Notes: generated from the letters alone by a model not told the origin. Shown: positions 48,140 through 61,580, counted from the first letter of the stretch. The stretch is DNA of 64,000 nt from Faecousia sp. (GCA_045611945.1 JAZKYA010000017.1:264-64263), one strand, 5' to 3'. Numbers and translations are program-made.

Positions 48140-48895
48140 CTACACATCCATAATCTTGTAACGGGAACGGTATTCCTGCGGGGTCATACCGGTACGCTGG
48201 CGGAATATCCGGCAGAAGCTATAGGGGGTAGAAAAGCCGCAGCTTTCTCCAATGGCCCAGATTTTCAAAGAACCCTCTGATAGCAATAACCGGGCCTTTT
48301 GAATCCGAAGGTCAATGACAAATTGCTTGGGAGACACCTGGAACTGTTCCTTGAAGAGCCGGCGGAAATATACCTCGCTGATCTGGCAACTCTGGGCTAA
48401 CTGTCCTACAGAAAGCTCCGGCAGGTGGTAGCTGCTGTAGATCTGGTCCACCGCGTTTTGCAGAACCCCCCAACGGTTCCGGGGTGAAAGCTGGTGCAGC
48501 ATATCGTAAAGAATGCTCATGCACTTGGCCTGGTCCTGTGGTTCCAGGAAAAGGCCCTTCAGCGCTTCATAGTTTTCCATAAGAAATTGGGACCCGGGAA
48601 TGTCCAGCGCTGTTACAGTTTCACAAAGAGGGGAAAGGGTTGTGATATTGATGACCGGGAAATCCCCTTCTTTGTCGCACCGCAGGGAGTAGCTCTGCCC
48701 CTGTGGCAGAAGCACCGCGTGCTCCGGGTCTGATACGACTGCCCTTCCGTCATGGAAATAAGTAACCTGTCCACTCTTACACAGAGAAAGGCCGTAGGTT
48801 GCCCGGTTTGTCACTTCCCTTACAGCTCCTTTTTCCAGATGAACGGTGAATACGCCGGTTATGCCTGTGATGACCGTATTTTGCAGTTCCATCAT
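48140..48895 (-). CDS. AraC family regulator
   Basis: ISEVYFRRLFKE...CGFSTPYSFCRIFRQRTGMTPQEYR. Confidence 0.93.
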   Translation of the reverse strand: MMELQNTVITGITGVFTVHLEKGAVREVTNRATYGLSLCKSGQVTYFHDGRAVVSDPEHAVLLPQGQSYSLRCDKEGDFPVINITTLSPLCETVTALDIPGSQFLMENYEALKGLFLEPQDQAKCMSILYDMLHQLSPRNRWGVLQNAVDQIYSSYHLPELSVGQLAQSCQISEVYFRRLFKEQFQVSPKQFVIDLRIQKARLLLSEGSLKIWAIGESCGFSTPYSFCRIFRQRTGMTPQEYRSRYKIMDV

Positions 48896-49051
48896 TTAAA
48901 CTCCCCTGTTAGCTTTTTTTAGCATATCATTTGTGTTTATAAATGTAAAGCTTTTCGGCACAAATGTATCAGAAAGCGCAATGTAGGATTGAAAATGTAT
49001 ATTGAAAAAAACGGTGATTTCTCTTATGGTATAGACAGGAGAGTGATAAAT

Positions 49052-49810
49052 ATGAATCAGCGGTTTTTAGAACAGTCCCAGCCATTGTTGACGGTGATGC
49101 TGCAATGTAACACTCCGGAAACTGCCATTGGCCGTATCCGAAACGCCCTTTGCCAGGGGGCAGAAGCCTTTGGATTGCAAACAGAATCCCTGCTGCCGCA
49201 GTACCGGAACCGGGAAACTCTGGAAAGAATTTTTGGCGAAATGCGGGGCAGGCCCTGCTATGTGACCAACTACCGTAGCGGCAGCAACCGGGAAAAATCC
49301 GAAGAACAACTGGCCCAGGAGCTGTTGGAGATGTCTCAATGGGGACAGCTTCTGTGTGATGTAATGGGTGACCTTTACTGCCCCCACCCGGAGGAACTGA
49401 CAGAAGATCCGGAAGCGATTCAAAAACAGATGGCCCTTATCGATACCCTTCACAGCCAGGGTTCCCAGGTCCTGATGTCCTCCCATATTTTGAAATTCAC
49501 CCCGGCGGAGCGGGTCCTGGAGGTGGCGCGGGAACATCTGCGGCGGGGTGCTGACATTGTGAAGATCGTCACCGGAGCGGAAACGATGGAACAGCAGATC
49601 GAAAATCTGCGGATCACGAACCTATTAAAAGAGGAACTGGGCGCGCCGTTCCTGTTTCTATCTGGAGGGGTGTGCAGCCTTCACAGGCGGCTGGGCATCC
49701 AACTGGGCTGCTGCATGGCGCTGTGCGTATATGAGCACGACATGATCTCCACCGGCACGCAGCCGCTGCTGACCACTATGAAGACCCTTCGGGACAGTAT
49801 CGATTTTTAA
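49052..49810 (+). CDS. type I 3-dehydroquinate dehydratase-like protein
   Basis: YVTNYR, VLMSSH, GADIVKIV (Schiff-base Lys position). Confidence 0.7.
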   Translation: MNQRFLEQSQPLLTVMLQCNTPETAIGRIRNALCQGAEAFGLQTESLLPQYRNRETLERIFGEMRGRPCYVTNYRSGSNREKSEEQLAQELLEMSQWGQLLCDVMGDLYCPHPEELTEDPEAIQKQMALIDTLHSQGSQVLMSSHILKFTPAERVLEVAREHLRRGADIVKIVTGAETMEQQIENLRITNLLKEELGAPFLFLSGGVCSLHRRLGIQLGCCMALCVYEHDMISTGTQPLLTTMKTLRDSIDF

Positions 49811-49822
49811 GGAGGAATCAAT

Positions 49823-50560
49823 ATGGAATTTTCGGGAAAAACCGCACTGGTAACCGGTGCTGCCAACGGCATTGGCCGTGCTACCGCCATTTTGCTGGCC
49901 CAGCGGGGCGCTAATTTGGTTCTGGTGGATATGAACCAAGAAAAGCTGGAAGCCGTAAAAGCGGAACTGGGAGAGGCTGGAGGCCGGACCGTATGCTTTG
50001 GCTGTGATGTAGCAGATATGGAAGCAGTCAATGCTGTGGTGGCTCAGGCAGAGGAACGGTTCGGCGGTATCGATATTCTGGTGAATAACGCCGCCCTATG
50101 GCGGTGCTGGGCGTCCCTTCTGGACACACCCATTGAGGACTGGAAGCGTTTTATTGATGTCAATATTATGGGTGTTGTTTACTTCACCCGGGCCGTCCTT
50201 GGGAAGATGCTTGAAAAGAAATACGGACGGGTCATCAATGTGGCCTCCGTTGCCGGTGTCTATGGAAATGCCAACATGGCCCACTACTCTGCTACCAAAG
50301 GCGCGGTGATTTCTTTCACAAAGGCGCTTGCCAAAGAAGTTTCCCACCTGGGCATTACCGTCAACGCCATTTCCCCCGGCAGTGTCAGCCCTGCCAGAAC
50401 GCCCGACATCAATTACAGCGAAGAAACGGACATGTCTTTCATGGGCAGGACCGGCTCTCCCAGGGAAAATGCGGAACTGATCTGCTTCCTGGCCAGTGAC
50501 AATGCCGGCTATATTTCCGGACAGAATATTCAGATCGACGGATGCCGAAAGAAACAGTAA
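49823..50560 (+). CDS. SDR family oxidoreductase
   Basis: TGAANGIG, NNA, YSATK, VNAISPG. Confidence 0.93.
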   Translation: MEFSGKTALVTGAANGIGRATAILLAQRGANLVLVDMNQEKLEAVKAELGEAGGRTVCFGCDVADMEAVNAVVAQAEERFGGIDILVNNAALWRCWASLLDTPIEDWKRFIDVNIMGVVYFTRAVLGKMLEKKYGRVINVASVAGVYGNANMAHYSATKGAVISFTKALAKEVSHLGITVNAISPGSVSPARTPDINYSEETDMSFMGRTGSPRENAELICFLASDNAGYISGQNIQIDGCRKKQ

Positions 50561-50573
50561 GGAGGTCTTTTCT

Positions 50574-51560
50574 ATGAAAGCGATTCTTGTAAACAACGAC
50601 AGAAGCCTGCGGTGGGACAATGTGCCTGACCCAGTTATAGGAGCGGAGGACTGCCTGGTAAAGATTGCGGCAGCGGCGCTGAACCGGGCGGATCTGATGC
50701 AGCGGGAAGGTGACTACCCTCCCCCTCCCGGCTGCCCGGAGTGGATGGGACTGGAAATTTCCGGCACCATCGTGGACATGGGAGAGGCTGTAAAGGAAAA
50801 ATCCTCCTGGAAGGTGGGCGATAAGGTCTGCGCGCTTCTGGGTGGCGGTGGCTATGCGGAGTATGCAGCCGTAAAATACGACATGCTGATGCCTGTACCC
50901 GAAAACTGCTCCATGATCGAGGCGGCGGCGATCCCCGAAGCCTTTGCTACAGCATATCTTAACCTGTTTGTTGAGGGCAATATCAAGGCCGGGGATACCC
51001 TGCTGATGAATGCCGGTGCCAGCGGTCTGGCCAGCGTGATCATTCCCATGGCCAAGGCCTTCGGTATCCGGGTTATCACCACGGTACTCAGTGATGAGAT
51101 TGGGGAAAGCATCCGGCATCTGCATGCGGACCGGGTAGTAGTTACCGCAAAGGAGGATATCTCTCTGGTTCTGAAGGAAGAGTTGGAGGCCGGACATCCT
51201 GTAGATGTGGCCATCGACTGTCTGGGCGGTGAGATTATGGGCAAGTGCATTCACTATCTAAAGCACGGCGCCCGATGGATCATGATCGCGGCCCTCGCCG
51301 GCCAGTACACCCAGATTGATCTGAAGAACATCTATGTCCGGAATGTGCGGATCATCGGCTCTACCCTGCGGTCCCGTACGCCGGAGATGAAGGCGCGGAT
51401 TCTGGCAAGCCTGGTACGGGATGTGTGGCCCAAAGTAACAACCGGTGAGGTCAAACCCACGATCTACCGGGTCCTTCCCATCCAGGAAGCAGAAAAAGCC
51501 CACGAACTGCTCTATCAAGGCAAAAATGTTGGCAAGGTTGTTCTGTCTGTTTGTGAATAA
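50574..51560 (+). CDS. NAD(P)H-quinone oxidoreductase (PIG3 type)
   Basis: LNRADLMQREGDYPPPPG, GGGYAEY, AGASG, GSTLRSR, GKVVL. Confidence 0.92.
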   Translation: MKAILVNNDRSLRWDNVPDPVIGAEDCLVKIAAAALNRADLMQREGDYPPPPGCPEWMGLEISGTIVDMGEAVKEKSSWKVGDKVCALLGGGGYAEYAAVKYDMLMPVPENCSMIEAAAIPEAFATAYLNLFVEGNIKAGDTLLMNAGASGLASVIIPMAKAFGIRVITTVLSDEIGESIRHLHADRVVVTAKEDISLVLKEELEAGHPVDVAIDCLGGEIMGKCIHYLKHGARWIMIAALAGQYTQIDLKNIYVRNVRIIGSTLRSRTPEMKARILASLVRDVWPKVTTGEVKPTIYRVLPIQEAEKAHELLYQGKNVGKVVLSVCE

Positions 51561-52083: not shown

Positions 52084-52117
52084 GGGCTGTCTCACTTTTT
52101 GTGAGACAGCCCCTTTT
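52084..52117. terminator. terminator-like hairpin
   Basis: GGGCTGTCTCAC/GTGAGACAGCCC. Confidence 0.55.
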
Positions 52118-52183: not shown

Positions 52184-53482
52184 TCATTCGTCCTGCCAGA
52201 GAACCTTCCAATCCTTAGGCGGCTCACCAAGATCGGGAACATCCAGGGTCACACCGCCCTGAAGGGCGGACTGATGGGCCAGAAGGCCGGGAATATTGTA
52301 CCGGGCCACCTCCCAGATATTGGTTGGAGACAGCTTTCCGGTTTCCACAGCACGGCAGAAATCGTCAATCAGGAACTGGTGGGTGCCATTATGGCCGTTT
52401 TCCAGAGCCTTATATTCCTCGGGCAGGCGGTCCACCGGCTGCACAGGGGAAGTCTCCACAGAGGCGGCCTGGCCGATCACATCCGGAATGGGAACATTCA
52501 CCAGCAAGCCGCCGCTGTTGGCAATGGCCTGAATGGCCAGAGGATAGTCCATGGAGATCAGCTTTGCCACATTTGCCGGCTGCAGTTCATTGGTCACATC
52601 CTTCATGATCACCGCACCGGGATTCTCCGGATCCCAGGTGGCAAGATGGTGGTGGGCAACAGAAAACTCATAGCCACCGTCTGTACCATAGAACTGGGAA
52701 ATATAGGTCTCAGGGGCACGCCAGCCCAGGCAGCGGTTTTCACTGACACGGGCAATACCGCCGTTGGACAGTTCCAGCATCATGGCCGTGTTGGAGAAGG
52801 GATTGTTGTAGAGATTCTGACCCTCGGTGCCGTAAATATCCGTTCGGGGACTGCCCCTGTAGCCAAAGGCCACTACCTTTTTGGCATAAACGCCGGGCAT
52901 GGAACTGAGGATCATGGAAGTGGAATGGGTTGGATAGAACATGGGCGGAATGCCGGCATACTGCTTCCAATCCTCTCCGCCGGAGCTGCGGAAGCTCTGC
53001 TCCATGTTACGGATATCGTGATTGTACTGAGACTCGGCGTAGACAAATTTGCCGAAGGTACCCTTGGCAAACTCCCGGCGGCAGAAGCAGGTAGCCGCGC
53101 GGTAGTAGCCGGTTTCACCCATGGAGTAGGTCAGGCCGGTCTCCCGAACCAAACGCTCGATCTCAAAAATATCCTCAATATCCGTAGCACAGGGCACAGA
53201 ACTGTACACATGCTTTCCAGCCTTCAGAGACTGGATCGCCATAGGGCCGTGCTGGGTACGGGTGGTGAAAATACCGATGGCATTAATGTCGCTCCGGCTC
53301 AGCGCTTCCTCGTAAGAATCAATGACCTTTACGCCAAAGCGCTGGGCGTACTCCTCTGCCCGTTCCCGGCGCAGATCGCAGACATATACTTCCTCCACAA
53401 AGGGATGGGCTTTGAAGAGGGGAACAAAAAACTGGCAGAACCGGCCGCAGCCGATCAGGGCGATTTTAATTTTCTCCTTCAT
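52184..53482 (-). CDS. Gfo/Idh/MocA family oxidoreductase
   Basis: IGCGRF, GKHVYSSVP, YSMGET, PPMFYPTHS, GHNGTH. Confidence 0.88.
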   Translation of the reverse strand: MKEKIKIALIGCGRFCQFFVPLFKAHPFVEEVYVCDLRRERAEEYAQRFGVKVIDSYEEALSRSDINAIGIFTTRTQHGPMAIQSLKAGKHVYSSVPCATDIEDIFEIERLVRETGLTYSMGETGYYRAATCFCRREFAKGTFGKFVYAESQYNHDIRNMEQSFRSSGGEDWKQYAGIPPMFYPTHSTSMILSSMPGVYAKKVVAFGYRGSPRTDIYGTEGQNLYNNPFSNTAMMLELSNGGIARVSENRCLGWRAPETYISQFYGTDGGYEFSVAHHHLATWDPENPGAVIMKDVTNELQPANVAKLISMDYPLAIQAIANSGGLLVNVPIPDVIGQAASVETSPVQPVDRLPEEYKALENGHNGTHQFLIDDFCRAVETGKLSPTNIWEVARYNIPGLLAHQSALQGGVTLDVPDLGEPPKDWKVLWQDE

Positions 53483-54458
53483 GTTGCTCCTCCTTAAAAA
53501 TCCAGCTTACCGCATGTTCTCCGGTAACAAACTGCTCTGTACTCAGCTTCCAGTCCTCTTTCTCCCGGAACTTCCGGTTAAAGGACTTACCCAGCAAGCC
53601 CTTTTCCTCCAGGTGGATGTAGCAGGCCCGGTCACAGGCCCTTCCGCAGATGGAGGTACGGTAAAAATGCTTTGCCGGAGGATAGAAATAGATATTTTCC
53701 AGAATGGTTTTCGCTTCCTCGTCGGTAAATTCCGCGGTGCCGTTGATAATATCCATCCGGTTTTCAAAGTCAGAGAAAGCCTCCGGGGGCATGAAGGGGT
53801 TCTTCTCGCCATTGGCACCGTTATAGTAAACGGCACAGCGCCAGGGATTCATTTCTCCGTTTTCCTTGATAGCACGGCCGGGGCAGGCTTTGATGCACTC
53901 CCCACAGTTGTCACAGAGTGTTTCCGTTACCAAGGGCGTCGCCGGTAGCTCCGCGTCAGTGAGGATAAAGCAGAAGCGGATAAAGGGACCGTAATCCTTG
54001 TTCAGCAGAGAACCGATCATGCTCTTTTCGCCCAGACCGCACTGAACAGCGCAGTTCAGGAAATCCAACTGGTTTTCCGCGGTTACGCCCCGGTGGATAT
54101 CCGTGAAGTCCACTTCGGGGTTGGTGGAATTTTCCTCAGCCATGATCAGCTGATTTCTTCTCTGGGGAACGGCTTCAAAGCCTTCCTCCTCCAAAAGATT
54201 GCTTACATTGATCAGTGCCAGGGGCATGACCGTTTCTTCCAGATTCTCTACACCCATGGTGGTGTACTGGTAGTATGTAGTGCCTTCCTCAACGCCCCGG
54301 TAAATGCCACGCAGGACACGGAAGCCCAGACCGATAACGGTTTTTGTTTCCGGGAAGATCCGGAATACCGGATCGTTTTCTGCAAAGCGGGACGCGGGCG
54401 CAAAGCCCACGATGTCCGCGTCATAGCGCTTGGCGCATTCAATGATTTTCTCGATCAC
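53466..54458 (-). CDS. QueG/reductive dehalogenase-like cobalamin 4Fe-4S protein, paralog 3
   Basis: GTG start after AAGGAGG. DADIVGFA, AVQCGLG, YGPFIRF..ILTD, CDNCGECIKACP, WRC, CGRACDRAC. Confidence 0.8.
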   Translation of the reverse strand: MIEKIIECAKRYDADIVGFAPASRFAENDPVFRIFPETKTVIGLGFRVLRGIYRGVEEGTTYYQYTTMGVENLEETVMPLALINVSNLLEEEGFEAVPQRRNQLIMAEENSTNPEVDFTDIHRGVTAENQLDFLNCAVQCGLGEKSMIGSLLNKDYGPFIRFCFILTDAELPATPLVTETLCDNCGECIKACPGRAIKENGEMNPWRCAVYYNGANGEKNPFMPPEAFSDFENRMDIINGTAEFTDEEAKTILENIYFYPPAKHFYRTSICGRACDRACYIHLEEKGLLGKSFNRKFREKEDWKLSTEQFVTGEHAVSWIFKEEQHEGEN

Positions 54459-55357
54459 AGCTTTCCAGCCTCCTTCAAATGACGGTAGCACACGGTCTCA
54501 CAGGCCTTGCCGCAGAGGCAGGGCATATAGCCGAAGTGGGTAGCCGGCAGGAACTTCAGCCGGTCGTAAATTTCCTGAGCAGATTCCTTGTCGAACCGCT
54601 TTTCACCCCGGAGGATCTGTTCCCGCTCCGGATGATCCTTCAGCGTATTCTCATCGGCAAAGGGATTGCTTTCGTGAGCGCCCCGGTAGTAAACACTGCA
54701 CTGCCAGCTGTCTACACCATTTTCGCTGATGGCCTTGCCGGGGCAGGCATTCAGACACTTGCCGCAGCCGTCGCAAAGGTTGCCCGCAAAGGGGGTGTCG
54801 GTTTCCAGGGGCATATCGGTAATGATGTAGAAAAACCGCATGTAGGGGCCGTACTTGGGCACCAGGACCTTGCCATGCATGCCCGGCGCGCCCAGACCGC
54901 AGACCACCGCCGCCTTGTTGAAATCCAGCACCACATCGGGAACCGGCTTTCCGGGGGCTACGGCAGAGGCAAACTGCAGCTCATAGACCTGCTTGACTTC
55001 CGGATTGGTGGACTTGTCGCCCTGGATCTTAAAGCCGGGAACGGTTCGCTGCAGGCAGGCATCGTAGCCCTCATTTTCGATCAGCGCGCCCATCTTCAGC
55101 AGGAAGATCTCCGCAAAGCTTTCGTCGATATACTTCACGCCCAGATTGGTGTAGTTATAGAACTGGCTTTTCCGCTCCATGGCGTTATACAGGCCTCTGG
55201 GCACTTTTACACCGAAGCCGATAATGGTCTTTGCGTTTGGCAGGATCGCAAAGGGATTCCTCTGGGCCGGCTCATTGCGCATCAGCTCCACATCACCGAT
55301 GCCGCAGATAGAAGCGCCCAGTTCCAGGGCCTTCTGTTTGATAAATTCCGCTGTCAT
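54455..55357 (-). CDS. QueG/reductive dehalogenase-like cobalamin 4Fe-4S protein, paralog 2
   Basis: GASICGIG, AAVVCGLG, YGPYMRF..IITD, CDGCGKCLNACP, WQC, CGKACETVC. Confidence 0.8.
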   Translation of the reverse strand: MTAEFIKQKALELGASICGIGDVELMRNEPAQRNPFAILPNAKTIIGFGVKVPRGLYNAMERKSQFYNYTNLGVKYIDESFAEIFLLKMGALIENEGYDACLQRTVPGFKIQGDKSTNPEVKQVYELQFASAVAPGKPVPDVVLDFNKAAVVCGLGAPGMHGKVLVPKYGPYMRFFYIITDMPLETDTPFAGNLCDGCGKCLNACPGKAISENGVDSWQCSVYYRGAHESNPFADENTLKDHPEREQILRGEKRFDKESAQEIYDRLKFLPATHFGYMPCLCGKACETVCYRHLKEAGKL

Positions 55358-55374
55358 ATGCTTTCGTACCTCCT

Positions 55375-56454
55375 TTACCGGTCCATCTTCCAGGCCTTGC
55401 CTGTACGCAGAGGCTCCTGGAACCGGTCGGCCATGCAGCCGCCCTTCTTTTCCAGCATGCTCACGCAGCCACGGATACAGCCGCCGCATTTTGCCATGTT
55501 GTAGCCCACCCAACTGGGGAAATACTTCTCCAGCGCGGTGTAGACCTTCATGACTTCCTTCTCATTCGCCTTGTCGGTGACACCTTCCAGAAGATCCAGT
55601 GAACCGTTTTCATTCTTGTCAAAGACTTCCTTGGGGACGAAGGGATTGAAATAACGGCCGCCGTGGGTATAGAAGGCATAGCACCGCCACATATCGATGT
55701 CGCCCCATTCGCATATCTTGCCCGCCAGGTCCACACGGACAGTCTTGCCGGACTTGATGGAGGGGATGCAGCCGCCGGGGCACTCCCGGACACAGGCGCC
55801 GCACTTACGGCACAGAGGCTCGCCGCTGTACATCTCGTCATATTCCAGTTCCGCGTCTGTGAAAATGAAAGCCACACGCTGCAAGGGACCGAATTCCGGG
55901 GTCAGCAGCATTTTGCTCCAACCGATCTCGCCCAGGCCGCAGGCCACTGCAGCCAGACGGAACTGGAACTGCAGATCCGGGGGTACTTTATCGGGACTCA
56001 CTTCACGGGTATACTGAACACTTCTGTGGTGGGCAGTCTTGCCCTTGGCGTGCTTACTGATCTCGATCTGCTCCTCAGGAGAGAGGGTGTTTCCGGGCGT
56101 TCCGTCCATGTCGGAAACCACGCCACGGGCACCGGTGTTGCGGTATACCACCGCTTCATAGCCTGCGTCCTCAATGACCTTGCCCACATGGTACAAAACC
56201 GCAGGCGCATAGATCTCGTTGATGCCGCCGTAGGCCATGGAGGGGTACTGGTAGAACTGCGTACCCTCTTCAATGCCCCGCTGCACACCCCGGGGGATCC
56301 GGAACGCAAAAGCAATACAGCTCTTGGCATTGGGGAACAGGTACTGGGGATTCATCTCCGGCGGCGCTCCGTCAAACCGGGACATAGGGCCGATGCCGCA
56401 CTTGTCCGCGCCCGCCTCATAGGCGGCTTTTTTGATCATTTCACTTGTCAGCAT
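55375..56454 (-). CDS. QueG/reductive dehalogenase-like cobalamin 4Fe-4S protein, paralog 1
   Basis: GADKCGIG, AAVACGLGEIG..LLTPEFGP.QR..IFTD, CRKCGACVRECP, WRC, CGGCIRGC. Confidence 0.82.
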   Translation of the reverse strand: MLTSEMIKKAAYEAGADKCGIGPMSRFDGAPPEMNPQYLFPNAKSCIAFAFRIPRGVQRGIEEGTQFYQYPSMAYGGINEIYAPAVLYHVGKVIEDAGYEAVVYRNTGARGVVSDMDGTPGNTLSPEEQIEISKHAKGKTAHHRSVQYTREVSPDKVPPDLQFQFRLAAVACGLGEIGWSKMLLTPEFGPLQRVAFIFTDAELEYDEMYSGEPLCRKCGACVRECPGGCIPSIKSGKTVRVDLAGKICEWGDIDMWRCYAFYTHGGRYFNPFVPKEVFDKNENGSLDLLEGVTDKANEKEVMKVYTALEKYFPSWVGYNMAKCGGCIRGCVSMLEKKGGCMADRFQEPLRTGKAWKMDR

Positions 56455-57463
56455 AATCTTCCTCCAACATCATTATCTGGTCTAGTTTCACGAATGCTTC
56501 TTCAAAATTCCCGTAAATTAGTTTTTCATCCCGTATTTCCCGGGAAATGCGCCGGTTTTCCAGCAGCCAGGGATAGAACAGCGCCGTGTGGTTGGGCTCC
56601 AGCAGGTCCAGAATGCTGCCGCTGTAGCTGCCGTCCTCTATGTAGGCTTTCAACACCCGGCTGGGATTGCTGTTGACACGGGTGGCAAGCTTCATCATGG
56701 GAAACAGTTCTTCATAGAGGGCAATATCCTCGGGACGGATAAAGCTGGTTTGTTCCAGTAGGGCCAGGGCGTTTTCCGGCCTGCTTAGATACTCGGCGCA
56801 AATGCCCTGAAAGGCGTAACCGTTGTCCATGGCAGAGATCTCCGATTCGTGGGACACCAGGTTATCATGGAACACATGGGCCGAGCAATGGTTCAGACAG
56901 CCGCCGTTTGCCAGGGCGTAAAGCTTCTTCCCTGCCCCGTCACACCAGTCCTTCAACTCCCGGATCTTTCCAAAGTCCCGGTTGTACTCCCGCTGGATAT
57001 AGAAGCTGTCGAAATACTGCCCCACATAGTCCATGCCGTAAACAGTGCCGATACCCATATTCACCGAAGCCCGGACCTCCAGCTCCGGGAAGTTCTCTTT
57101 GATGAATTTACCGATCAAGGGTGATGTGGTGGTGATACTCTCCAGACCCATGTGGGTACCGATATAGTCCACCGTCTCCCCCACCTTTTGGAAAAAGGCC
57201 CGGGATTGGCTGTCCTTGCCATAGCAGGTGGCATTGAACAGCAGATTGAACCGCAGTCCCTGACCGGCAAGCCAAGTCAGGTCCTCCTCCTGCCGCCGCT
57301 GGGCCTCCCAGGGAGTCAGCCCGGTTTTCCGAAGCTGACTGTTGCGGCCATTGGGAAAGTCCCCCCAGGAGAAATATACCTCCCGGATACTTTCCCTGCA
57401 CCGGGCAATATATTCCAGAAAGTCCCGGTCATTACATAGCTGATAGCCCACGGAATATTTCAT
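56441..57463 (-). CDS. U32 peptidase-family (putative Fe-S) protein
   Basis: FNLLFNATC, FPELEVRASV, QREYNRD, LANGGCLNHC..H, FIRPEDI..Y, KLATR. Confidence 0.7.
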   Translation of the reverse strand: MKYSVGYQLCNDRDFLEYIARCRESIREVYFSWGDFPNGRNSQLRKTGLTPWEAQRRQEEDLTWLAGQGLRFNLLFNATCYGKDSQSRAFFQKVGETVDYIGTHMGLESITTTSPLIGKFIKENFPELEVRASVNMGIGTVYGMDYVGQYFDSFYIQREYNRDFGKIRELKDWCDGAGKKLYALANGGCLNHCSAHVFHDNLVSHESEISAMDNGYAFQGICAEYLSRPENALALLEQTSFIRPEDIALYEELFPMMKLATRVNSNPSRVLKAYIEDGSYSGSILDLLEPNHTALFYPWLLENRRISREIRDEKLIYGNFEEAFVKLDQIMMLEEDYADK

Positions 57464-57821
57464 AGGGTTCCTCCAAATAAAGCGTTTCGGTATTCTGCGC
57501 CGAAACATCGTTGTTTTCCGTAACAAACACAAGGGCATCCTCCGTTACCGCCAGATAATGCCAGGTCCCGGCTTCCACACAGGCTTCCTCGCCGGAAACC
57601 AATTCCGTAATTCGCCGGTTATCTCCATCCGGGTCCATGGTCAGAAGAGTCGCGGAGCCCCGCAGGAGGACGAAAACCTCCGGAGAGGTCAGGTGGCGCT
57701 TCATCACATTCACCTTGCCGTAGGTGTACTGCGCGGCATGGGTGATCCAGGCACACAAAAACCGGTCTGTACGCAGAGCCGGTCGAAAACCGTTACCTCC
57801 AGAGTTTTGTTTCTCTGTCAA
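57432..57821 (-). CDS. cupin-fold protein
   Basis: KRHLTSPEVFVLLRG, VEAGTWH. TTG start after GGAGG. Confidence 0.75.
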   Translation of the reverse strand: MTEKQNSGGNGFRPALRTDRFLCAWITHAAQYTYGKVNVMKRHLTSPEVFVLLRGSATLLTMDPDGDNRRITELVSGEEACVEAGTWHYLAVTEDALVFVTENNDVSAQNTETLYLEEPYEIFRGLSAM

Positions 57822-57925
57822 AGCAGATTCCTCCAGTTCTGTTTTCTGTCTTGATAATATAACAAATTAGCTGTATAATGTATGACAAAGTAAAGCCAAA
57901 ATATAACGAAACAAAGGTGTTCTCC

Positions 57926-58774
57926 ATGGAACTGACAAATTTGAATCCTCATATCCGTTATGCCGCCATTCACGAAAAATACCGCCACAGGCCCTTTGAC
58001 AGCATCTGCTACGACTGCCGCCTTTTTTTCTTCCGGGAAGGCACTGGAAGCGTTACGGCTGCGGGGACCCGGTATCCTTTCAGTAAGGGAACCGTGCTGT
58101 ATTTCCCCCCGGGGACCCGGTACCGTTTCTCCCTGACCAAGGATGAACCGGGGTTTTCGCTGGTGGTAATCAACTTTGACCCCGTCAGTGATTTCAGCGC
58201 CCTCAGCGTTTCTCTGGGTACCGCCACAGCGGACAATTTTGATCCTGCCCGGCTGATGGGCTATCCCCTGCCAGAGCCTCTTTCTCAAATTCTGTACCGG
58301 GAACTGCCTGAGCTGGATACACTGCTTCACCGCATCACCGATGCCTTTCTGGATGCCGGAGCCTATTACCGGGAAACCGCCTCCGCACTTATGAAACTGG
58401 CCCTGTTGGAGCTTCTGCAAAAAGGCCACCGGGACCCGGATACACAGCACGCCCAGCCGGTTCTGGAATATGTCCATGTCCATTACGCCGACCCGGAGCT
58501 AACCAACGGCGCCATTGCCGCAGCTTTCAACTACCACCCCTATTATCTGAGCCAGCTCGTCAAGCAGGCCACCGGCCGGACCCTTCACCAGTACATTCTG
58601 TCTTATCGGCTTCGGATGGCCCGTCAGCTTTTGATCACCACAGATCTTCCGGTCTCCACTGTGGCATGGAAAACAGGCTTTCAGTCCACCGCCTATTTCG
58701 TCAAGCTCTTCAAGCGGGAGCTGGGCATCACCCCCGGCACCTGCCGGAAAAACCATGCACATATTCTATTTTAA
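57926..58774 (+). CDS. AraC family regulator
   Basis: N-terminal cupin, NYHPYYLSQL, GFQSTAYFVKLFKRELGITP. Confidence 0.93.
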   Translation: MELTNLNPHIRYAAIHEKYRHRPFDSICYDCRLFFFREGTGSVTAAGTRYPFSKGTVLYFPPGTRYRFSLTKDEPGFSLVVINFDPVSDFSALSVSLGTATADNFDPARLMGYPLPEPLSQILYRELPELDTLLHRITDAFLDAGAYYRETASALMKLALLELLQKGHRDPDTQHAQPVLEYVHVHYADPELTNGAIAAAFNYHPYYLSQLVKQATGRTLHQYILSYRLRMARQLLITTDLPVSTVAWKTGFQSTAYFVKLFKRELGITPGTCRKNHAHILF

Positions 58775-58780
58775 AAATCA

Positions 58781-58805
58781 GAGGCAGCGCCAACGGCGCT
58801 GCCTC
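58781..58805. terminator. bidirectional terminator
   Basis: GAGGCAGCGCC/GGCGCTGCCTC between convergent genes. Confidence 0.7.
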
Positions 58806-58811
58806 CTTTAT

Positions 58812-60011
58812 TCATTCCGGTTGTTCGTATGGGCCCAGTTCCAGCATTGCCGGTACCCGGTAATCCGGCAGGTTATCCCGATAGGTCAGCACTTCCCGGA
58901 TAGCCTGTAGATACTGGAATCCGTTTTCCAGGCAGGGTGCCACATAGTGCCCCTCAGACCATTCATTCCAGGCATCGATAATCAGAATTTTCCTTCCGAT
59001 CGCGTTTTCAGGAAGCCCGTCTACCAGGGTCTTTACCTGCATCAACAGTTCTTTGTATTCCATTGGCGACAGCCGGAACTGCATGATGGGTCCTCTGGGA
59101 TTGACACCCAACACCGGAAACCAAGGCCGGGAATCCCGCATAGCCGACGCTGTGAACATGGAAAAATACGGATCAAACCCAATTCTATCCCGGATTTTCC
59201 CCAGTTGTTCTTCCACAACCAGCTTTGGGTCCAGCATCAGCGTTTCCAGGTAGGTTTCATACTGCTGCGCCGTCAAGTCCTCAATAGCTACCTGCTGACA
59301 GTACTGGAAGATCGAATCTACCCCCATCTCCCGAACCGCCTCAATAGGCTGGTGCCACTGATTGCGTTCGTGGATCGCCTTATTGCTGTGGGTCACGGAA
59401 ATGTGGATTCCGGGAAAGCCGTGTTTTTCTATTTCCCGGCGAATCAACTGCAGCATCTGGCCTAGCTTCTCCTCAGAGCCCAGCAAGTTCAGCAGATTTC
59501 TCAGGCCATAGATATAGAGTACCGGCTTTCCGTCTATGGTCAGATACTGGGGATCGGAAAAATAATGCTCCACCCAGAAAGGAATCAGATTTTCGGTCAG
59601 ATCCGTCAAATCCTGGATCGTACCCCAGTCGCACTCCCACATGATGGCAAATTTCATGTATTTCTTAAAACGGCAATGAAAATAGGCCTCATGTATGGCG
59701 TGCCCCAGACGCAGATCCTCCAGGTTGATCTTGTGACCTACATTCTCCCGCTTGCGGTACCAGCAGTAGATAAAACAGCCGATACCGTGCTCCACAGCCC
59801 ATTTGATCTCCCAGTCGCAGATCTCCGGATCTTCTTCCCTATAGTAGCCTAAAAGGGGGGTACGCTCCGGATAGTCTGCCAGATCTCCAAAGCCGTTGTG
59901 GATGTCGGTGCCGCCTTTTTTCCATCCCGGATAGTAGTGGCATGCGATCAGCCTGTCCGTTTTTACCGGCTGCGGCTCCGGAATGTAGGGATACAGTTTG
60001 GCAGTTCTCAT
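58812..60011 (-). CDS. GH99-like / WbsX-family glycoside hydrolase domain protein
   Basis: ACHYYPGW, PLLGYY, WEIKWAVEHGI, IDGKPV, DAWNEWSEG. Confidence 0.82.
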   Translation of the reverse strand: MRTAKLYPYIPEPQPVKTDRLIACHYYPGWKKGGTDIHNGFGDLADYPERTPLLGYYREEDPEICDWEIKWAVEHGIGCFIYCWYRKRENVGHKINLEDLRLGHAIHEAYFHCRFKKYMKFAIMWECDWGTIQDLTDLTENLIPFWVEHYFSDPQYLTIDGKPVLYIYGLRNLLNLLGSEEKLGQMLQLIRREIEKHGFPGIHISVTHSNKAIHERNQWHQPIEAVREMGVDSIFQYCQQVAIEDLTAQQYETYLETLMLDPKLVVEEQLGKIRDRIGFDPYFSMFTASAMRDSRPWFPVLGVNPRGPIMQFRLSPMEYKELLMQVKTLVDGLPENAIGRKILIIDAWNEWSEGHYVAPCLENGFQYLQAIREVLTYRDNLPDYRVPAMLELGPYEQPE

Positions 60012-60022
60012 ATATGTGCCTC

Positions 60023-61468
60023 CTATTTGACAATGACAGATTCGATTCCCAGTATATCTCCGATCTTCTTCAAGGTATTGGCATGGTGGCCAACGCCCAA
60101 GGCGTAATGATGGGTCGGCCCTTCCATGACCCACTTCTTGATGAATTCTCTTGTGGTAGGTTCAAAGAATCCCCGGGTGTTGGTGTTTCCGGTAGGCGGA
60201 ATGGAGCCTTTCTTGGAATACCCCTCGCCGATGACGAATTTGAAACCGCCGGAAGCATTCTGCGTAATGCCCAGCATGGTAATGGGACCTTCCTTGATCT
60301 TGAATTCCACGGAAGCGCCCTGGCCGGGCTTACCGTGATATTTGATCAGGCTTCTCAGCACAGGCTTGCCCTGAGCGATCTTGATATGATGGGGGCCATC
60401 GTGGCCCACCAGAATGAAGTCCTCGTTGAAATCAAAGGGATGGAACTCCGCGAAGCTGCCTCCGATGTCCAGCCGGTCCATGATCAGCATGGCGATACAG
60501 GTCTTAATATCAAATTCGCCGCACATGGGAATCCCCTGGGCGTTAAGGATGGAATTGCCTACAATGAAGGAAGTGGCAACCTTTCTTTGGATACTGTCCG
60601 GGCTGCCTTCATAGTAATAGGCCAGGCCGGTAAGGTTGTACTTCTCCACCAATTTATCCAGTGCCACAGCGCTGCGGGCCGCCTGACGCAGATCCTCCGG
60701 TGTCAGCTTCCGGGTAACAGGATCGGAAACCGGAACGGGCGTATCAAACTCCTGCAAAATCAACGCTTCCTTTTCAGCGATTTCCGCCTCGGTCACTGTG
60801 TCATAAAGCCGAACCACATCCTCGATCTCCAGCAGCGGCACATGCAGGCCAAAGGCAGCGGAAACGGCTGTGGGGTCAGCGTGCATATCGTACATAGATT
60901 CCAGCACATGGCCCATAAGACCGATTCTGGCGCCATGCAGATCATGGAGGACCTTGGCAATGTCGCACCACCGGGCCACTTCCGCCATGGCTTCCTCATC
61001 CCCATACAGATGGCCGATGACCACATCCGCTACCTTTTTTCCCATACGGATGGCAACGCCTGTGAACTCAGGTACGGAGCAGATATTGTCATTTTCCAGC
61101 TGCATAAAGGTATTGGCCTGGGTGTAATCCAAACCCTTTCTGGGCTGCAGCGCTATCAGCACCATAGGCACATTGGCCTCCCGGATAATGGGGGCAAATA
61201 CTGATGATGTGGCGTAGGTAACCATATTGCAAAACAGCACATCCACGCAGGCAGCTTTGATCCGGCTGAGCGTATCATATGCCTTTTCGCTGCTGTCCAC
61301 CATACCGAAATCCACAACTTCCACATCCTGCTGTTCTACCATTTCGCAGAATTCTCTGTGGTAGCTCAGGATATTGTCCTCCAGTCCCGAAAATTGTTCC
61401 CAGTAGGTAGCATGGGCCACGGCAAAAATACCGATTCTCGCGGTTCTTTTCTTCTTTCTTTGAATCAT
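60023..61468 (-). CDS. L-fucose/L-arabinose isomerase family protein
   Basis: MYDMHADP, CGEFD, GGSFAEF, GHDGP, GPTHH. Confidence 0.85.
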   Translation of the reverse strand: MIQRKKKRTARIGIFAVAHATYWEQFSGLEDNILSYHREFCEMVEQQDVEVVDFGMVDSSEKAYDTLSRIKAACVDVLFCNMVTYATSSVFAPIIREANVPMVLIALQPRKGLDYTQANTFMQLENDNICSVPEFTGVAIRMGKKVADVVIGHLYGDEEAMAEVARWCDIAKVLHDLHGARIGLMGHVLESMYDMHADPTAVSAAFGLHVPLLEIEDVVRLYDTVTEAEIAEKEALILQEFDTPVPVSDPVTRKLTPEDLRQAARSAVALDKLVEKYNLTGLAYYYEGSPDSIQRKVATSFIVGNSILNAQGIPMCGEFDIKTCIAMLIMDRLDIGGSFAEFHPFDFNEDFILVGHDGPHHIKIAQGKPVLRSLIKYHGKPGQGASVEFKIKEGPITMLGITQNASGGFKFVIGEGYSKKGSIPPTGNTNTRGFFEPTTREFIKKWVMEGPTHHYALGVGHHANTLKKIGDILGIESVIVK

Positions 61469-61580
61469 GAAAGGCCACTCCAATCAAAAGTTTTTCTTTA
61501 TTTTATCTTGGTGGTGTGGTACAATCAACGGAGAAAACCTAGGAGGATTCGTATAAAACACAGATACAGGAGGTGCTGTC

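Follow-up and report, generated by a model that had tools for sequence, protein, structure and literature searches.

To our knowledge, class III cobalamin enzymes are known to carry out only dehalogenation and epoxyqueuosine reduction, and U32 Fe-S proteins only anaerobic hydroxylation. The former comprise the reductive dehalogenases (RdhA), with PceA (4uqu, 8q4h) and NpRdhA (4ras, 6zxu) among the solved structures, and QueG (5d08, 5d6s), in which the motif CX2CX2CX3C...C...CX2CX3C binds both [4Fe-4S] clusters (PMC5175355); a Tyr above the corrin (QueG Y101, PceA Y246) is the only active-site residue common to all solved class III enzymes (PMC4646009). In a stretch of 64,000 nucleotides (nt) from Faecousia sp. 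(GCA_045611945.1 JAZKYA010000017.1:264-64263), hereafter the window, the locus at 52184-58774 brings together three proteins predicted to have the class III fold (A, B and C) and a barrel protein resembling U32 at the level of the predicted fold (X), encoded in one operon that is divergent from a gene for an AraC-type regulator. The genome is a metagenome-assembled genome (MAG) whose 1.96 Mb are spread over 114 contigs, with a completeness of about 90% and a contamination of 2.6%. A first-pass annotation of the window had singled out this locus as a candidate anaerobic redox pathway, and our own reading, which we hold tentatively and give slightly less than an even chance, is that AraC induces the operon and that it encodes a cytoplasmic redox enzyme of several subunits, as yet undescribed, which would act on a sugar-derived substrate by reductive carbon-heteroatom chemistry. 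The four genes on which this reading is built are the following:

57463 to 56441, minus strand: X, 340 amino acids, ATG start; predicted TIM barrel, remotely U32-like, putative Fe-S protein
56454 to 55375, minus strand: paralog A, 359 amino acids; QueG/RdhA fold (RDH 3.5e-10, QueG 1.1e-6)
55357 to 54455, minus strand: paralog B, 300 amino acids; QueG/RdhA fold (AlphaFold2 (AF2) model, pLDDT 96.2)
54458 to 53466, minus strand: paralog C, 330 amino acids, GTG start (QueG 4.3e-11, RDH 1.8e-9)

Judged by profiles, predicted structure and a tree, A, B and C, which are 34-36% identical to one another, are old paralogs with a branch of their own in the class III cobalamin superfamily to which QueG and RdhA belong. 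Pfam recognised only Fer4 motifs in them, and the matches to the NCBIfam models span about 75 central residues (QueG model positions about 136-211) and score far below the curated cut-offs: A, B and C reached 27.9, 44.4 and 42.4 bits with QueG TIGR00276 (cut-off 200) and 40.2, 55.8 and 37.9 bits with RDH TIGR02486 (cut-off 160). A phmmer search with B found PceA at 2e-8 and QueG at 1.7e-7, a family profile built from 56 members and run against PDB sequences matched PceA at 3.5e-23 and 1e-17, QueG at 2.4e-14 and NpRdhA at 3e-13, and hhalign against short QueG orthologs from related genomes gave a probability of 99.5% (E 1.2e-22, 187 columns). Homologs of B (n=1626) are annotated only as '4Fe-4S binding' or hypothetical, apart from one source that labels a B homolog 'epoxyqueuosine reductase QueG'.

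The model of B superposes best on QueG (VIA Z 17.0, root-mean-square deviation (rmsd) 2.9-3.7 Å, 205-215 residues) and covers QueG residues 2-253, that is, the cobalamin (Cbl) and ferredoxin domains. It is followed by RdhA structures with Z 14.7-15.7 and rmsd 2.5-3.1 Å (PceA, Z 15.7 and 2.5 Å; NpRdhA, Z 14.9), and the next-best matches are the B12-trafficking proteins CblC (Z 9.6) and CblD, in the range of Z 7-9.6, and flavin nitroreductases at Z about 4-5. The cysteine pattern that binds both clusters in QueG is kept in A, B and C, with eight ligands for two [4Fe-4S] clusters, and the class III arrangement of a nitroreductase-like Cbl domain followed by an eight-Cys ferredoxin domain was found in the family. 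The segment most strongly shared with PceA and QueG lies beyond the ferredoxin part, in the corrin-side core AxxxGLGxxG...GPxxR, where PceA R305 aligns with the near-invariant Arg of GPxxR; at the position of BsQueG R141, under the corrin, A keeps the Arg, B has Asn and C has Leu. Profile, hhalign, structural and eight-Cys evidence agree in upholding the first-pass call of three QueG/RdhA-like proteins.

In a quick maximum-likelihood tree with support from the Shimodaira-Hasegawa-like approximate likelihood ratio test (SH-aLRT), 61 family members form one clade (100%) on a long branch from QueG, inside which the B proteins make up one clade (99%), the A-type proteins a large second one (100%, 36 rows) and the C-type proteins a grade, and the short QueG orthologs of related organisms fall in a distant separate clade. 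With scores below both cut-offs and a clade of its own, the family does not group within bona fide QueG, a grouping that the first-pass annotation had named as counting against its proposal. The short QueG orthologs, found in related families (L018-L025), are open frames of 266-303 amino acids that keep the QueG D-Y-H and the Cys motifs and score 120-180 bits, indicating that the TIGR00276 cut-off of 200 misses short QueG proteins of Clostridia. Tandem fusions of 750-800 amino acids with two (possibly three) copies of the domain were also observed (P0278, P0282, P0294 and about 30 representatives), and these would fit paralogous domains working side by side; one such fusion (L017:7001-9385) is flanked by a sugar ABC transporter, a 744-amino-acid FAD oxidoreductase, a URO-D-like protein and a further A-like gene.

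X gave no match to Pfam or NCBIfam up to E=10, PF01136 included, its sequence profile found only 5d88 in the PDB (E=0.87), and its 3098 homologs are all unnamed. The AF2 model of X (pLDDT 86) consists of a TIM barrel and a small C-terminal beta domain, and the structure nearest to it is 5d88, that of the U32 peptidase Mk0906 and the one U32 structure solved so far, both by Foldseek (1.3e-11, with other barrels reaching 5e-6 at best) and by VIA (Z 16.7 against 12.0 or less, rmsd 3.0 Å, 220 residues). The first-pass label of a U32 Fe-S protein therefore held at the level of fold and failed at the level of sequence family, and X is, going by its model, a remote relative of U32 and not a member of the family. 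Four Cys are invariant (C80, C189, C193 and C222, with the spacing C...CX3C...X28C), which suggests that they, including the CX3C pair, hold one [4Fe-4S] cluster. There is also an invariant loop rich in His, Asp and Glu (residues 196-215, with the conserved HDNLV-H-E / MDNG); since confidence in the model is lowest inside this loop, at about residues 200-216, the model suggests that it becomes ordered on a cofactor or partner. Thus X shares with the U32 proteins (Mk0906, UbiU/UbiV, RlhA and TrhP) the TIM barrel, a CX3C pair among its invariant Cys and anaerobe hosts, and differs from them, besides the missing PF01136 match, in its Cys spacing and in its partners, which are class III cobalamin-fold proteins and not UbiT or RNA substrates.

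Conserved co-occurrence of these genes in other genomes, which the first-pass annotation had made a touchstone of its proposal, was found: X-A-B-C recurs across 64 species-level loci. A pattern scan matched at least 599 stretches, at least 545 of which encode a relative of X, and the neighbourhood counts given here refer to the best 80 species-level loci among these at least 599 stretches. All 80 come from uncultured Clostridia of human, ruminant and bird guts, with carriers in Faecousia, Acutalibacteraceae, Oscillospiraceae, 'Ruminococcus' and Ornithomonoglobus, and a Faecousia MAG heads the matches with 85% identity. Of the 80 loci, 64 contain A, B and C together, as do 60 of the 66 in which at least 3.3 kb follow X; in 59 of the 64 the order is colinear X-A-B-C, the remainder being mainly C-B-A <> AraC-X, with A-B-C-X also seen. 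Because the same colinear set stands in 59 of 64 other species genomes, the arrangement is not due to chance. In 62 of the 80 loci an AraC ortholog (26-50% identical) lies divergent from X; the 64 complete loci include 55 with AraC, 38 with a cupin, 35 with the oxidoreductase GFO (after C) and 25 with both cupin and GFO. As a statement about gene content, the first-pass operon thus holds for X-A-B-C with AraC and needs qualifying for cupin and GFO.

A search for further conserved neighbours in the 80 loci found no other family in more than nine of them, and no conserved transporter. Occasional extra genes within the operon encode a radical-SAM/SPASM protein, a YgjV-type small membrane protein, a DUF5696/GH101-like protein, a serine hydrolase, GH3 and DUF4874/4832. 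The radical-SAM/SPASM protein, of 330 amino acids, lies between X and A in L079, L092, L093 and L101, was also seen in L073, L077 and L087, and is sometimes accompanied by the YgjV-type membrane protein; the two could be a maturase and an uptake component, respectively. Among 201 genomes sampled evenly across the order, X was present in eight, over six families, and the five X-positive genomes of an unbiased sample of the order all have family members immediately beside X. Family matches indicating the module were found in only three of 18 other genomes of the genus, so that the module is accessory and patchy across the order. In the genome studied here, a short further contig (C53, L006:1-1882) carries the end of a second C (84% amino acid identity) and the start of a GFO (95% amino acid identity), which points either to another strain that was binned into the MAG or to a duplicate of the operon.

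The members of the module are not equally constrained. Across the 80 loci, identity to orthologs is 84-88% for A (median 88%), 70% for C, 69% for GFO, 67% for B, 60% for X, 42% for the cupin and 41% for AraC, and the share of columns conserved at 97% or more is 43% in A, 23% in C, 19% in X and 11% in B. A carries two conserved insertions, one a loop of about 36 residues where QueG has its catalytic Asp loop, absent entirely from C, and the other 17 residues in the ferredoxin domain. In addition, an A-type and an X-type gene stand alone with an AraC gene as two-gene modules (L015/L016, the P0265 place, L111 and G113). Given that A is the most constrained protein and that separate A-like/X-like/AraC modules exist, A and X probably form the catalytic or functional core, and B and C are probably auxiliary, as an electron wire or scaffold.

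Two further genes of the operon, its regulator and the signals around them complete the locus:

57821 to 57432, minus strand: small cupin, 129 amino acids, TTG start with GGAGG 8 nt upstream; first gene of the operon
53482 to 52184, minus strand: GFO, Gfo/Idh/MocA NAD(P) oxidoreductase, 432 amino acids; last gene of the operon
57878 to 58774, plus strand: AraC/XylS-family regulator (HTH_18 1.5e-22, 80.1 bits; HTH_AraC 53 bits)
57851 to 57879, plus strand: promoter-like site of the AraC gene, TTGATA-17-TATAAT, 11/12 matches, a consensus match only
58781 to 58805: terminator hairpin 3' of the AraC gene
52084 to 52112, no strand assigned: GC-rich hairpin with a 12-bp stem, 72 nt past the GFO stop

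The six minus-strand genes follow one another across 52184-57821 as cupin, X, A, B, C and GFO in transcription order, with overlaps of 32 nt (cupin/X), 14 nt (X/A), 4 nt (GTGA, B/C) and 17 nt (C/GFO), a 17-nt gap between A and B, and a GGAGG-type ribosome-binding site ahead of each start. This gene model agrees exactly with the six coupled genes, the overlaps and the gap of the first-pass annotation, and the divergent AraC gene that it had reported is a plus-strand HTH_18/HTH_AraC regulator. The N-terminal domain of this regulator is a cupin-type sensor (Cupin_2 28.8 bits, AraC_binding 24.6 bits), and it belongs to the AraC/XylS family. The annotated ATG at 57878 falls within the gene's own -10 box; given the promoter-like site that spans this ATG, an AAGGTG ribosome-binding site before 57926 and orthologs that align from residue 17, the true start is probably M17 at 57926, giving a protein of 282 amino acids. 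With this start the divergent control region (57822-57925) would measure about 100 bp, and a promoter scan of it returned none that passed for the operon. The hairpin at 52084-52112 likely marks the end of the transcription unit, although its T-tract lies on the plus-strand side and termination on the minus strand is deduced.

The cupin gave only sub-threshold matches (WbuC-family cupin 28 bits against a cut-off of 42, Ureidogly_lyase and Cupin_2) and E=0.007 with the PDB entry 3d0j, and its position varies among the loci, where it may precede X, lie between A and B, follow C or GFO, or stand on the far side of AraC. GFO has a PF01408 Rossmann domain (6.8e-20, 72.4 bits against a cut-off of 24) and is a member of that family, with the C-glycoside 3-oxidase DgpA (7xr9, 5e-15), sugar 3-ketoreductase, GH109 and 1,5-anhydrofructose reductase as its nearest solved relatives. 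The DgpA-type glycoside 3-dehydrogenases (7xr9, 9m3d) are thus the closest described comparison for GFO, from which it is set apart in that only the N-terminal Rossmann part matches well, that the operon has no DgpB/C-type lyase and that about half of the modules lack GFO. Both the cupin and GFO are accessory, each occurring in about one locus out of two.

The neighbouring genes are related to carbohydrates and encode GH20, a WbsX-like protein, a fucose/arabinose-isomerase-like protein, an esterase, two more AraC regulators and several dehydrogenases. An adjoining unit at 48140-51560, under another AraC, encodes a type I dehydroquinase-like protein, a short-chain dehydrogenase/reductase (SDR) and a Zn-dependent alcohol dehydrogenase, and possibly serves quinate, shikimate or cyclitol metabolism; it is not kept beside the X-A-B-C module in other genomes. 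On the other side, the open reading frames at 58812-60134 (WbsX-like) and 60023-61483 (fucose/arabinose-isomerase-like) overlap by 112 nt as listed, and the latter probably starts later than its first GTG.

The mechanism that we propose for this operon begins with induction by AraC of a cytoplasmic, multi-subunit redox enzyme. Its core would be X with one [4Fe-4S] cluster and A with a base-off corrinoid and two [4Fe-4S] clusters, while B and C, which appear to have the same fold and eight Cys, are much less constrained and lack the active-site loops of A, would most likely act as a scaffold and as a low-potential electron wire from a ferredoxin-type donor to A. In lineages having them, GFO and the cupin would prepare or tidy the substrate, the former by oxidising a hydroxyl of a sugar or glycoside to a ketone and the latter perhaps as an isomerase or tautomerase. 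The reaction would be a reductive cleavage or elimination of a C-O or other C-heteroatom bond in a small molecule derived from a sugar or glycoside, this type of chemistry being the most likely by analogy with the removal of an epoxide by QueG and of a halide by RdhA. Because GFO is DgpA-like, the operon is under AraC control and glycosidases and esterases are found nearby, it is reasonable to suppose a sugar- or glycoside-derived substrate; the first-pass idea of deoxygenating a sugar or cyclitol draws on this context only. The analysis shows the gene structure, the folds, the place in the superfamily, the Cys ligands, the conservation of the module and that it is distinct from QueG; that a corrinoid is bound, that the proteins form a complex, what each subunit does, which way the reaction runs and what it acts on are what we infer from these comparisons.

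Several results weigh against this proposal. The Fe-S motif of U32 oxidases, CX6CX15CX3C (PMC11574389), is not present in X, which keeps only the CX3C pair. The class III Tyr falls, in a low-confidence profile alignment, on a column that varies, with Y or F in A, F in B and V in C, so either the active site is unlike that of every characterised class III member or the alignment is off by a few residues; Y70 and Y75 of A, nearby invariant Tyr residues, could substitute for it. G083, a genome that is 95% complete and carries X-A-B-C on its contig C3 (69249-73148), gave no detectable cobalamin riboswitch. About half of the loci lack GFO and the cupin, and transporters are not conserved, so the link to sugar is circumstantial, and the results leave the choice between a reductive and an oxidative direction unconstrained.

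An oxidative direction is what follows if X itself is the catalyst, an O2-independent hydroxylase or oxidase that, like UbiU/V, RlhA and TrhP, would put oxygen into a small molecule or take it out; A, B and C would be its dedicated electron-transfer partners, with a net oxidative outcome. This is unlikely in our view, and yet it draws on real features of the locus: the fold of X is closest to U32, it has four invariant Cys, it always accompanies A-type proteins, and characterised U32 proteins are Fe-S-dependent anaerobic hydroxylases (PMC11574389, PMC10990095). However, X has neither a U32 sequence match nor the U32-oxidase motif, and it is A that is most constrained (84-88% identity, against 60% for X) and that carries specific conserved loops, which would be unexpected in a mere electron wire. 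Furthermore, some family members are found with no adjacent X (L110).

It could also be supposed that the family has lost the corrinoid and that A, B and C are Fe-S-only proteins, in a polyferredoxin-like redox module or with another cofactor, e.g. flavin. The label 'B12' derives from fold and homology, and the variable Tyr column, the Pfam searches that see only Fer4 domains, the degenerate features of B and C and the case of G083 all speak for such a loss. On the other hand, the strongest segment in common with PceA and QueG is precisely the corrin-side one, the superposition takes in the entire Cbl domain (Z 15-17, about 205 residues, model residues 1-300), and CblC/CblD come ahead of the flavin nitroreductases in the structural comparison. 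The host genome has CbiD, CobS and three cobalamin riboswitches, which makes corrinoid supply plausible and also stands against a loss, and a cobalamin riboswitch was found in nine of ten other module-bearing genomes checked, a proxy that does not discriminate. We regard the loss of the corrinoid as quite improbable.

The comparison with RdhA suggests a third alternative, a cytoplasmic, catabolic reductive dehalogenase for an organohalide of natural or dietary origin, which might be a halogenated sugar or glycoside. RdhA proteins are the best profile matches, slightly ahead of QueG, the Arg of GPxxR is equivalent to PceA R305, and, like NpRdhA, the paralogs are cytoplasmic; moreover, cytosolic RdhA-like clades tied to sugar-degradation genes, in an architecture other than X-A-B-C, have been described in cold-seep metagenomes (PMC12219181). 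Nevertheless, all scores lie far under the RDH cut-off, the family branches as a clade apart, the catalytic Tyr does not seem to be kept, an architecture of three paralogs and a U32-like protein is unknown for dehalogenases, and there is no obvious abundant organohalide in gut or rumen, so we consider a dehalogenase very unlikely. Respiratory organohalide reduction was rejected, in keeping with the first-pass view that it was unlikely: A, B and C have no signal peptide, twin-arginine translocation (TAT) signal, N-terminal unit, extra domains or fused reductase, the paralog N-termini begin directly with the core helix, level with PceA residue 142 in the alignment, the RDH scores of 38-56 bits fall short of 160, and the overlaps between the operon genes leave no room for an rdhB gene, RdhB being absent.

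A similar comparison was made with QueG, which the paralogs resemble in the Cbl domain, the two-[4Fe-4S] ferredoxin domain with its eight-Cys pattern and the Arg of A at R141. They differ from it in ending after the ferredoxin domain, lacking the C-terminal HEAT/tRNA-binding domain, and in not keeping D-Y-H, in whose place A has I-Y-A, B has S-F-A and C has T-V-M. Their clade is separate and on a long branch, and the three paralogs come with a U32-like partner under AraC. Elsewhere in the genome there are queA (466 bits), tgt (496 bits) and QueH (199.5 bits), and QueH is a non-orthologous epoxyqueuosine reductase; with QueH, queA and tgt present, the queuosine step is already covered in this host. 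Queuosine synthesis was accordingly ruled out, the scores of 26-44 bits against 200 agreeing with the first-pass judgement that it was unlikely. That A, B and C are divergent QueG isoenzymes finishing queuosine on tRNA, as the 'QueG' label given to a B homolog and a search of the genome with TIGR00276 that found no match above cut-off might suggest, is scarcely credible for AraC-regulated, accessory genes whose partner X occurs in so few genomes of the order, in a host that uses QueH, with the true short QueG orthologs in a distant clade and neither HEAT domain nor D-Y-H in the paralogs.

We return to X-A-B-C as a multi-subunit redox enzyme under catabolic-style control. The more specific form of this proposal, that X-A-B-C is a new heteromeric enzyme made up of a corrinoid/[4Fe-4S] protein A, a U32-like barrel and two degenerate paralogs and carries out a reductive deoxygenation or dehydroxylation, is possible, though we think it rather unlikely. 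A full-text literature search on QueG- and RdhA-like proteins, class III cobalamin enzymes and U32 operons found no description of the module and no counterpart to it, in accordance with the first-pass statement that no characterised operon has this composition. If true, the proposal would give class III B12 enzymes a third type of reaction and would open a new route for the anaerobic metabolism of carbohydrates or xenobiotics in the gut. The module pairs the class III and U32 folds, is regulated in a catabolic style and has thousands of homologs in gut, rumen and digester metagenomes; its function would probably reveal a new anaerobic reaction and a new demand for B12 in the gut community, and solving it would assign several thousand proteins now annotated as 'hypothetical / 4Fe-4S binding'.

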